A stretch of 5,422 nt of DNA from the IMG/VR virus record IMGVR_UViG_2681813182_000003, one strand, 5' to 3'. The notes below the pieces were generated by a model. That model was not told the DNA's origin, did no database searches, and saw only the letters and a program-made list of their open reading frames with translations. Below, piece after piece: positions 1,699 to 5,422 of this stretch. How positions within the stretch are numbered: the first letter of the stretch is position 1; every line of letters starts with the position of its first letter. Made by a program: the position numbers and the translations under genes. This stretch comes from a virus (taxonomy: Duplodnaviria > Heunggongvirae > Uroviricota > Caudoviricetes).

Positions 1699-2193
1699 AT
1701 GGCTGGAACGGCGGGGCGTTCCGGGCGTCGCCCCAAGCCAACGGCGCGCAAGGCGCTGGCCGGAAACCCCGGCAAGCGAGCCCTGAACAAAGATGAACCT
1801 GTTTTTACGCCCATCAAAGGTGTTGAGCCACCAGAGTGGTTCGCTGAAGAAGATCTCCCTCTCGCCACGATCATGTGGCAACTGACAACCAAAGAACTCT
1901 GCGGTCAGGGCCTGCTGTGCGTGACTGACCTGGCGGTACTTGAGCGGTGGTGCGTGGCCTATGAGTTCTGGCGACGTGCCGTGAAAAATATTGCCATACA
2001 GGGCAACACCATCACCGGTGCAATGGGCGGCAGGGTCAAAAATCCGGAGCTGACCGCCAAAAAAGAACAGGAGTCCGAGATGAGCAGCACGGGGGCAATG
2101 CTCGGACTCGACCCCAGCAGCCGCCAGCGTCTGATTGGCCTGGCGGGGCAGAAGAAAGCCACTAACCCGTTTCTGAAAATTATCGAATCATGA
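1699..2193 (+). CDS. Terminase small subunit, P27 family
   Basis: The track ORF begins at GTG 1690, but AGGAG (1686-1690) overlaps that codon and is correctly spaced for ATG 1699. N-terminus [31 protein letters not shown] is typical of P27-family terS. Stop overlaps the terL start (ATGA). Confidence 0.85.
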
Positions 2194-3923
2194 GCCGGAA
2201 ATCTTACCCCAACGTAAATGCTGCAAATCAGTATGCCCGGGATGTCGTGCGCGGAAAGATTGTTGCCTGCCAGTTTGTGATTCAGGCCTGCCAGCGCCAT
2301 CTTGATGACCTGATGGCGGAAAAAAGTAAGTCGTTTCGTTACCGCTTCGACAAGGACCTGGCTGAACGGGCCGCGAAATTTATTCAGCTGTTGCCGCACA
2401 CCAAGGGGGAGTGGGCATTCAAACGGATGCCCATCACGCTGGAGCCGTGGCAGCTATTTGTGATCTGCTGTGCGTTTGGCTGGGTCAATAAAGGCACCCG
2501 GTTGCGCCGCTTCCGGGAGGTGTACACCGAAATCCCCCGTAAGAACGGCAAATCAGCAATCTCTGCCGGTGTTGCCCTGTATTGTTTTGCCTGTGATAAC
2601 GAGTTTGGCGCGGAAGTGTATTCCGGTGCCACGACAGAGAAACAGGCGTGGGAAGTCTTTCGCCCGGCGCGACTGATGTGTAAACGCACACCCATGCTGA
2701 CGGAAGCGTTCGGGATTGAGGTTAACGCCTCAAACATGAACCGTCCGGAGGATGGCGCGCGGTTTGAACCGCTGATCGGCAACCCAGGTGATGGTTCATC
2801 ACCCCACTGTGCCGTGGTTGATGAATATCACGAGCATGCCACCGATGCGCTTTATACCACAATGCTTACCGGGATGGGGGCGCGACGTCAGCCACTGATG
2901 TGGGCCATCACCACCGCCGGGTACAACATTGAGGGGCCGTGCTACGACAAGCGGCGGGAAGTCATCGAGATGCTCAACGGCTCGGTGCCTAACGATGAAC
3001 TGTTCGGGATCATCTATACCGTTGATGAAGGTGACGACTGGACCGGCCCGCAGGTGCTGGAAAAAGCCAATCCAAATATTGGCGTGTCGGTTTATCGCGA
3101 ATTTTTGTTAAGTCAGCAGCAGCGTGCGAAAAATAACGCCCGTCTGGCAAACGTCTTTAAAACAAAACACCTCAATATCTGGGTGTCGGCGCGTTCGGCG
3201 TATTTCAACTTGGTGAGCTGGCAGAGCTGCGAGGATAAATCACTGACCCTTGAGCAGTTCGAGGGGCAGCCGTGCATTCTGGCCTTTGACCTGGCGCGTA
3301 AGCTGGATATGAACAGCATGGCGCGACTTTATACCCGCGAGATTGACGGTAAAACGCATTACTACAGTGTGGCCCCGCGTTTCTGGGTACCGTATGACAC
3401 GGTGTACAGCGTCGAGAAAAATGAAGATCGACGGACAGCCGAACGCTTTCAGAAATGGGTGGAAATGGGCGTTCTGACCGTTACCGATGGTGCGGAGGTG
3501 GATTATCGCTACATCCTCGAGGAGGCCAAAGCGGCGAACAAAATCAGCCCGGTCAGTGAGTCACCCATCGACCCCTTCGGGGCGACCGGGTTGTCACATG
3601 ACCTTGCTGATGAAGACCTGAATCCCGTCACTATCGTCCAGAACTTCACCAATATGTCCGATCCGATGAAAGAGCTGGAAGCAGCGATTGAATCGGGACG
3701 TTTTCATCATGACGGCAATCCCATCATGACCTGGTGTATCGGCAACGTGGTCGGCAAAAACATGCCGGGTAACGATGATGTGGTGAAACCCGTCAAAGAG
3801 CAGGCGGAAAACAAAATCGATGGTGCAGTTGCGCTGATTATGGCGGTTGGCAGAGCCATGCTGTACGAGAAAGAAGACACGCTGTCTGACCACATTGAGT
3901 CCTACGGGATCCGCTCGCTTTAA
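2190..3923 (+). CDS. Terminase large subunit (ATPase/nuclease)
   Basis: 577 aa. Deviant Walker A-like P-loop ([12 protein letters not shown]), Walker B-like hydrophobic run ending in acidic residues (CAVVDEYHE), C-terminal nuclease-like region ([15 protein letters not shown]). Translationally coupled to terS. Confidence 0.93.
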
Positions 3924-3934
3924 CTGAGGTAATT

Positions 3935-4117
3935 ATGATCATGCTGATTCTCGCGCCTCTGGTGGGCGTGCTGGGTGCGCTTTTGCTGGCGTATGGTGCC
4001 TGGCTGATTTATCCCCCGGCGGGTTTTGTTGTTGCCGGGGCGCTGTGCCTGTTCTGGTCGTGGCTGGTGGCGCGATATCTCGACCGTACACGGCAGTCTG
4101 TCGGCGGAGGTAAATAG
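3935..4117 (+). CDS. Hypothetical small membrane protein (60 aa, two predicted TM helices)
   Basis: GAGG (3926-3929) lies 5 nt upstream of ATG 3935. Codon usage looks enteric (CTG, GCG, GTG rich). Two hydrophobic helices ([22 protein letters not shown] and [19 protein letters not shown]) and a basic C-terminus. The stop TAG overlaps the portal GTG (TAGTG), and the portal SD GGAGGT sits in its last codons. Confidence 0.55.
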
Positions 4118-5273
4118 TGTTCTTTTCGGGATTATTTCAACGAAAAAGCGATGTGCCGGTGACCACGCCAGCAGAACTGCTGATGCTATCGGGCTGTCAT
4201 ACGACACCTATACCGGAAAGCGGATCAGTAGCCAGCGGGCCATGCGCCTGACGGCGGTCTATTCTTGCGTCAGGGTGCTGGCAGAGTCTGTTGGTATGCT
4301 GCCCTGCAGTCTCTACAAAATCAGCGGTACCCTGAAAACACGGGCGGTGGATGAACGACTGCATAAGTTGGTTTCGGCAAAACCTAATGGCTACATGACA
4401 CCGCAGGAATTCTGGGAGCTGGTTATTGTCTGCCTGTGTCTACGGGGGAATTTTTACGCCTACAAGGTAAAGGCACTGGGAGAAGTGGTGGAGCTTCTTC
4501 CGATAGATCCGGGCTGTGTGGAACCGAAGCTGAACAGCCAGTGGCAGCCGGTTTATCAGGTGACGTTTCCGGATGGTTCCGTGGATGTGTTGACCCAGAA
4601 TGAAATCTGGCATGTGCGCACCCTGACGCTGGATGGACTTGTCGGGCTGAATCCCATTGCGTATGCGCGTGAGGCCATTTCACTGGCAGCGGCAACCGAG
4701 GAGCACGGTGCCAGGTTGTTTAGTAATGGTGCGGTGACATCCGGTGTGTTGCGTACGGAACAAAAGCTCACGCCGGATGCTTACGAGCGTCTGAAGAAAG
4801 ATTTTGAGGAGTGTCACACGGGGCTTGGCAATGCTCACCGCCCGATGATTCTGGAAATGGGGCTGGACTGGAAGTCGATGGCGCTGAACGCCGAGGACAG
4901 TCAGTTCCTGGAAACCCGCAAGTTTCAGCTGGAAGAAATCTGTCGTCTGTTCCGGGTGCCGTTGCACATGGTGCAGAACACCGATCGCGCCACCTTCAAC
5001 AATATCGAAGAGCTGGGGCTGGGATTTATCAACTATTCACTGGTGCCGTATCTGACCCGCATCGAACAGCGGATCAACACCGGACTGGTACGAAAAAGTA
5101 AGCAGGGCGTTTATTACGCCAAATTTAACGCCGGGGCGTTACTGCGCGGGGATATGAAGTCCCGTTTTGAAGCCTACGCCACCGGGATCAACTGGGGAAT
5201 TTACTCTTCCAATGACTGCCGCGACCTGGAAGATATGAATCCGCGTCCCGGTGGTGTAATGCCGATCAGTTAA
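4117..5273 (+). CDS. Phage portal protein, HK97 family, with a frame change near 4190-4212 (possible pseudogene or sequencing error)
   Basis: GGAGGT (4106-4111) lies 5 nt upstream of GTG 4117. That frame encodes MFFSGLFQRKSDVPVTTPAELLMLSGCHTTP and stops at 4249-4251. The long ORF ending at 5273 is in the -1 frame relative to it and has no ATG/GTG/TTG start downstream of the small ORF before 4242. Its body carries the conserved portal N-terminal motif (AMRLTAVYSCVRVLAESVGMLPCSLY). The track start at TTG 4026 would give an implausible Cys/Trp/Arg-rich N-terminus. Confidence 0.8.
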
Positions 5274-5305
5274 GGATCAGTTGACCGATCCAGTGGCTGT
5301 GTAAG

Positions 5306-5340
5306 AATCCGGAAACGCTCACTTGTTTCCGGATTTTTTT
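5306..5340 (+). terminator. Perfect 11-bp hairpin plus T7 tract (intrinsic-terminator-like) immediately upstream of the transposase ATG
   Basis: AATCCGGAAAC (5306-5316) pairs perfectly with GTTTCCGGATT (5325-5335), with an 8-nt loop. The T-run 5334-5340 abuts ATG 5341. Confidence 0.6.
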
Positions 5341-5422
5341 ATGCACATTGGACAGGCTCTTGATCTGGTATCCCGTTACGATTCTCTGCGTAACCCACTG
5401 ACTTCTCTGGGGGATTACCTCG
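5341..5422 (+). CDS. insG: IS4-family (DDE) transposase, N-terminal fragment (truncated by window end)
   Basis: ATG 5341 opens a reading frame that runs to the window end. The first 27 residues match my memory of IS4 InsG. There is no phage-module context and no conventional SD; the start is buried next to the hairpin. Confidence 0.55.
   Translation, partial: MHIGQALDLVSRYDSLRNPLTSLGDYL

Follow-up and report, generated by a model that had tools for sequence, protein, structure and literature searches.

IS4 truncates the portal gene of a prophage remnant in Shigella sonnei

Gene content and the truncated portal gene

The stretch of DNA analysed here, called the window at its full length of 5,422 nucleotides, covers part of a prophage that runs into the insertion sequence IS4 close to its end. 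The features around this junction are summarized in Table 1. Further upstream an Rz-like gene (Pfam Phage_lysis, 708-1184) encloses a 60-aa ORF in another frame (940-1122) that shows a lipoprotein-like signal; a nested Rz/Rz1 arrangement is usual in lambdoid lysis cassettes. An HNH endonuclease gene (1227-1577) directly precedes the genes for the small and large terminase subunits, a position typical of HK97-like cos-packaging phages. The large terminase gene (2190-3923) is present in thousands of assemblies. It is followed by a ymfR-like gene and the portal gene, which corresponds to the order expected for the HK97 family.

Table 1. Features around the junction of portal gene and IS4 (window coordinates).
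Feature	Position	Strand	Basis or remark
HK97-type portal gene, native part (codons 1-380 + 1 nt), pseudogene	4117-5256	+	Pfam Phage_portal, E 1.7e-107
1-nt deletion relative to intact portal genes, frameshift after ~codon 21	4178-4179	+	Single gap against two intact portal genes
Portal bases expected to be duplicated by IS4 insertion, CGTCCCGGTGGTG (11-13 bp)	5244-5256	+	Second copy missing in the source genomes
Junction codons GTA ATG CCG ATC AGT TAA (V M P I S stop)	5256-5273	+	Translation; inside the IS4 inverted repeat
IS4 left end, nt 1-166 of the 1426-bp element	5257-5422	+	166/166 against K-12 IS4; remainder past the window end
IS4 left terminal inverted repeat TAATGCCGATCAGTTAAG	5257-5274	+	Complementary to the right end at 16/18 positions
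Promoter-like site TTGACC, 16 nt, AAGAAT preceded by TG	5281-5308	+	Consensus scan, 9/12 positions
Strong hairpin (arms 5303-5317 and 5324-5338) overlapping a seven-T run (5334-5340)	5303-5340	+	Directly before the transposase ATG
First 27 IS4 transposase codons	5341-5422	+	Same as the N-terminus of the 442-aa protein of locus L007

The closest phages are the Shigella phages SfII, SfIV and SfI, which share 93-95% nucleotide identity with the window up to 5254-5256. In these phages as well as in E. coli prophages the genes for both terminase subunits, the ymfR-like protein and the portal protein are collinear with those in the window. Intact E. coli relatives exhibit the order TerL, YmfR, portal, HK97 prohead protease and major capsid protein, whereby the protease gene overlaps the portal gene by 23 nt. 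In contrast to SfII, SfIV and SfI, the S. sonnei remnant carries a frameshifted portal gene and lacks its last 33 codons together with the protease, capsid and further downstream genes.

The portal gene starts with a GTG codon. Its product covers positions 2-321 of the 321 positions of the Pfam profile PF04860 (Phage_portal), i.e. the portal domain is still complete. Intact portal genes of E. coli MSI001 and SC516 comprise 1242 nt and encode 413 aa. An alignment with these intact genes places the entry of IS4 after nt 1141, in codon 381, and the start of the protease gene in the intact relatives lies 78 nt past this point. A right flank of IS4 derived from the portal gene would begin with (C)GTCCCGGTGGTG, followed by ATGTCTATCTC... 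(portal tail and protease). Matches of the portal gene to phages and E. coli end at window positions 5254-5256; a few E. coli matches reach 5267 solely by a 2-nt gapped chance extension.

Restoring one base at the site of the deletion leads to a single continuous frame of 385 codons, with 348 of 380 residues identical to the 413-aa protein of SC516. The translation ends with ...NPRPGGVMPIS* as given in a preliminary description of the window, which had also located the last portal codons and the stop in the terminus of the insertion sequence. Both points hold, the TAA stop (5271-5273) being part of the IS4 repeat. The same description assumed that the element had removed the native C-terminus. 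Indeed, alignment with intact homologues indicates that 33 of 413 residues are gone, the native tail DVYLTPMNMTTKPSDGSKAGKQKDNANADETTS (taken from SC516) being replaced by VMPIS and a stop. IS4 thus truncates the portal gene and the prophage is defective, as had been suspected: the portal gene is frameshifted and truncated, and no head genes follow IS4. Judged from the reading frames, the portal gene was inactivated twice, the frameshift being independent of IS4.

Identity and boundaries of the IS4 left end

The terminal part of the window is identical to nt 1-166 of E. coli K-12 IS4 (E 9e-81). Of 5426 complete E. coli genomes, 2591 contain these 166 nt, which carry the annotation ‘IS4-like element IS4 family transposase’. 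In K-12 the element (locus L001, 1801-3226) has a length of 1426 bp and is flanked on both sides by the 12-bp duplication CAGAACCAAGAT. As the limits of the K-12 element are set by its target duplication, window position 5257 corresponds to nucleotide 1 of IS4, and the boundary that had been placed there from the letters alone is exact. The right-end repeat, read from K-12 as well as from the source genomes, matches the left one at 16 of 18 positions; the 18-bp inverted repeats are thus imperfect. Moreover, the outermost bases TAATGCCGATCAGTTAAGGA (5257-5276) agree with the end consensus of the IS4 subgroup, -AATR--------WTW---- (PMC2266710, Table 1).

The sequence past 5422 continues as IS4. 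Full-length copies in the source loci (L004-L012) are 99.6% identical to K-12 IS4 over 1426 nt, and the size of 1426 bp in L007 and L008 lies inside the range of 1400-1650 bp for the IS4 subgroup. IS4 is the founding member and type of the IS4 family, which comprises insertion sequences with a DDE transposase. The K-12 element (insG) shares with the present copy the 166 nt at 100%, the 99.6% identity over 1426 bp, the 18-bp repeats and a 442-aa DDE transposase. It differs in having the duplication CAGAACCAAGAT, whereas the S. sonnei portal copy has no target duplication.

The ORF starting at 5341 reads MHIGQALDLVSRYDSLRNPLTSLGDYL and represents the exact start of the 442-aa IS4 transposase, in line with the N-terminus that the preliminary description had assigned to it. 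As the window holds 27 codons only, domain searches were performed with the full-length protein of L007. It is encoded by a single ORF and shows the Pfam domains Nterm_IS4 (3.1e-33) and DDE_Tnp_1 (7.8e-32), both above the cut-offs, the NCBIfam model transpos_IS4_1 (303.8 bits, cut-off 115) and the Y(2)R(3)E(6)K motif YSHRWEIELGYREIK at residue 307. A Pfam search with the 27-aa N-terminal fragment alone gave no match.

Taken together, the element at the window end is IS4 itself. All of its defining features that could be tested are present except the flanking target duplication. The preliminary description, which had proposed an IS4-like element next to the portal gene, named two outcomes that would argue against it, the lack of an IS4 match and a downstream phage head gene lacking terminal repeat and duplication; neither was found.

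Two further elements precede the transposase gene. A consensus scan returned one promoter-like site where 0.5 would be expected. The region 5295-5345 folds with -22 kcal/mol (z = -5.25), and none of 200 shuffled sequences folded equally well. A terminator scan of 5000-5422 called no site, owing to the fact that the T run is partly taken into the stem. The feature is hence best described as a hairpin with a T run and a candidate terminator at most. An Rfam scan over the whole window gave no match. The 5’ arm of the hairpin would be missing in a transcript initiated at the promoter-like site, while both arms would be present in RNA reading through from the portal gene. The hairpin and T run would thus probably prevent portal read-through from entering the transposase gene. 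Hairpins shielding the transposase gene from outside transcription have been described for other IS elements. Start codon assignments differ in this region: RefSeq places the start of K-12 insG at a TTG (window 5323, 448 aa) inside the hairpin, 18 nt before the ATG at 5341 (442 aa) that is used by other gene calls and in the preliminary description.

Target site and DNA beyond the right end

The target preference of IS4 was evaluated with a matrix built from 39 independent left flanks, which were collected by a scan of species-representative genomes. The flanks derive from S. flexneri, E. coli, Kosakonia, Scandinavium, Photorhabdus and Buttiauxella. They are A-rich from -23 to -16, C-rich from -14 to -9 and show G at -4, -3 and -1. 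The portal left flank scores 7.4 bits, compared to a leave-one-out median of 7.0 for the known sites, and lies within the top 0.16% of 60,422 background positions. Based on this score, the left junction looks like a normal strand transfer of IS4 at a typical target. The K-12 site and both right-flank sites agree with the target rule AAA-N20-TTT for IS4. The portal site does not literally fit this rule and was considered as a non-canonical target; this was rejected on the basis of the matrix, as the score exceeds the median.

The presence of IS4 left ends was not restricted to Escherichia and Shigella. Kosakonia oryziphila REICA_142 and a Scandinavium MAG contain many contigs with the exact 35-nt left end (L015-L058), which indicates an expansion of IS4 outside these two genera. 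The exact left flank of K-12 was also found next to an IS4 left end in a 265-bp contig of Methylobacterium mesophilicum NBRC 15688 (NZ_BPQU01000128.1, L046). Judged from this identity, the contig looks like a K-12 contamination of the assembly.

Six complete chromosomes contain the whole window with 100% identity, among them that of Shigella sonnei Ss046 (CP000038.1). At least nine complete chromosomes from independent assemblies have the identical junction of portal gene and IS4, which is absent from the complete E. coli genomes (n = 5426). Beyond the right end of IS4 two configurations were observed. In L004-L006 and L010-L012 the right end adjoins GCTCATTGAGCA..., followed by bamE, recN, nadK and grpE (junction at 15829/15830 in L011). 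In L007-L009 it adjoins CAGCCCTTGAGC..., followed by raiA, pheL, pheA, tyrA and aroF (junction at 14493/14494 in L007). The GCTCATTGAGCA flank corresponds to K-12 position 2753991 in the bamE-yfjF terminator and the CAGCCCTTGAGC flank to position 2736907 in the bamD-raiA terminator. The two sites are 17.1 kb apart in K-12 and represent core DNA in all 5426 E. coli genomes. Their opposite sides end with ...AAAGGTGCTCATTGAGCA (yfjF side of bamE-yfjF) and ...AAACGGCAGCCCTTGAGC (bamD side of bamD-raiA). The K-12 insertion site and the two right-flank sites have a common register: AAA and 3 nt precede the 12-nt core that is duplicated, and 5 nt and TTT follow it. The bamD-raiA terminator also holds an IS4 copy in S. 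flexneri SFBU1023 (L029) and E. coli ECMA0423 (L050), acquired independently, in the 12-bp CAGCCCTTGAGC register and in an orientation opposite to that of the S. sonnei copy. The bamD-raiA terminator hairpin is hence a recurrent target of IS4.

IS4 copies that were read through both ends and are not rearranged exhibit duplications of 11-13 bp. At the portal copy the left flank ...CGTCCCGGTGGTG faces GCTCATTGAGCA... or CAGCCCTTGAGC... on the right, and no target-site duplication (10-13 bp expected) was found. The missing duplication reflects a later rearrangement of this copy and not the kind of element. Likewise, none of the 58 loci examined gave a BLAST match to the portal tail, protease or capsid genes. 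The suggestion that the insertion had split the head module therefore holds in one respect only: IS4 interrupts the module at the portal gene, but the protease and capsid genes are absent past the right end, where core chromosome follows instead. Similarly, an inverted right end together with an 11-13 bp duplication had been predicted about 1.4 kb downstream; the right end is present, the duplication is not.

The predicted distance does not apply to Ss046-type genomes, in which the right end is found 2762 bp downstream because of an IS2 element nested in IS4. In contrast to the K-12 element, the IS4 copy in these loci is interrupted at nt 1118-1122; the inserted IS2 (14190-15520 in L011) has a length of 1331 bp and a 5-bp duplication, GTGTC. 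As a consequence, the Ss046-type copy is no longer able to make its own transposase. The IS4::IS2 junction was also found as one continuous match in E. coli CFS3313 and Ec1115. At its opposite end the remnant is bounded by an IS2, which lies upstream of the DnaB-like helicase gene. The surviving prophage thus extends over ~10 kb, from the dnaB-like helicase gene to the truncated portal gene, between two IS elements.

Origin of the locus and its meaning

Loci L009 and L011 are identical over the window but have different right flanks. Since two right flanks occur beside an identical 5.4-kb window, recombination must have taken place at this IS4 copy at least once. The IS4 SNPs are identical in both configurations and hence reveal no sign of a crossover. 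We are rather confident that the locus arose by a normal insertion of IS4 into codon 381 of the portal gene and subsequent IS4-IS4 recombination, leaving a prophage remnant in S. sonnei. An ordinary IS4 insertion would first have hit the portal gene of an SfII/SfIV-like prophage with an HK97-type head. Homologous recombination with IS4 copies at the bamE-yfjF and bamD-raiA terminators would then have swapped the right flank, and by this exchange the protease, capsid and tail genes would have been removed or relocated. The outcome would be the ~10-kb fragment with IS2 on one side and a frameshifted portal gene, which should be unable to form particles. IS4 hence marks the breakpoint at which the remaining prophage was lost or moved, whereby IS4-IS4 recombination is the most likely route. 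An ancestral portal::IS4 copy with an 11-13 bp duplication and downstream head genes was not found, and no near-identical intact prophage was recovered.

Alternatively, the transposase itself could have generated the junction. An IS4 copy residing at the bamE-yfjF or bamD-raiA terminator would keep its right flank while its left end attacks the portal gene. An intramolecular or sister-chromatid transposition of this kind would delete or invert the intervening DNA in one step, and no duplication would be expected. The absence of a target duplication agrees with such an event, as do the right flanks, which are canonical IS4 sites in the correct register, and the left flank, which is a good target. 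Moreover, IS10 is a relative within the IS4 family and gives rise, at low frequency, to adjacent deletions. On the other hand, IS10 and IS50 are excised at both ends, so that a single element rarely keeps one flank. In addition, the two right flanks require IS4-IS4 recombination in any case, and recombination alone explains everything. We therefore regard this route as unlikely. By this comparison, a one-step transposase deletion from a terminator-resident IS4 appears less likely than recombination.

A simple insertion of IS4 with nothing further is highly improbable; it would have left a target duplication, and beyond the element the portal tail would continue into intact prohead protease and capsid genes. 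Such an insertion would agree with the base-precise left junction at a typical IS4 target and with the protease gene starting just 78 nt past the insertion point in intact relatives. In all 10 of 10 source contexts, however, the right end adjoins GCTCATTGAGCA... or CAGCCCTTGAGC... and never (C)GTCCCGGTGGTG, and sequence of the portal tail, protease or capsid was present in none of the loci examined. For the genomes read a simple insertion was ruled out, as core chromosome follows the right end and a duplication is missing. Finally, a chimeric join of portal gene and IS4 at the repeat can practically be dismissed: IS elements are classic sites of misassembly and short-read contigs such as L013 do end at the junction, but the same junction occurs, base-precise at IS4 nucleotide 1, in at least nine independent complete chromosomes.

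The two right flanks suggest, as far as can be judged from the flanking bases, an IS4-bounded inversion or another rearrangement that is polymorphic among strains. Tentatively, and with considerable doubt on our side, a recurrent inversion switch between the bamE side and the raiA side may exist in S. sonnei, with the IS4 copy as one of its arms. Both sites are terminator hairpins and repeated targets of IS4. The 17.1-kb segment between the two terminators would then flip via inverted IS4 copies in circulating lineages. In K-12 the segment from bamE-yfjF to bamD-raiA brackets ffh, rpsP-rplS, grpE, nadK and recN.

The IS4 junction as such is ordinary and already known, being present and annotated in public S. 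sonnei genomes, and the species is known for IS expansion. IS1, IS3, IS4 and IS91 are enriched in Shigella, where IS-driven inversions and deletions are frequent (PMC2266710, PMC8072062). Compared to other IS-disrupted cryptic prophages of Shigella, the remnant likewise lies between IS elements, with IS2 to its left and IS4 to its right; its structural genes have become pseudogenes, and closely related strains show alternative flanks. It does not differ in substance from known IS-mediated rearrangements in Shigella and represents one more instance of them. Its significance lies mainly in annotation: the locus is a dead prophage remnant and not an inducible phage, and the IS4 end explains the early stop of the portal ORF as well as assembly breaks in short-read genomes of S. 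sonnei. It also documents one more case in which a Shigella rearrangement has its breakpoint at an IS copy that lacks a target duplication; such events are well described.
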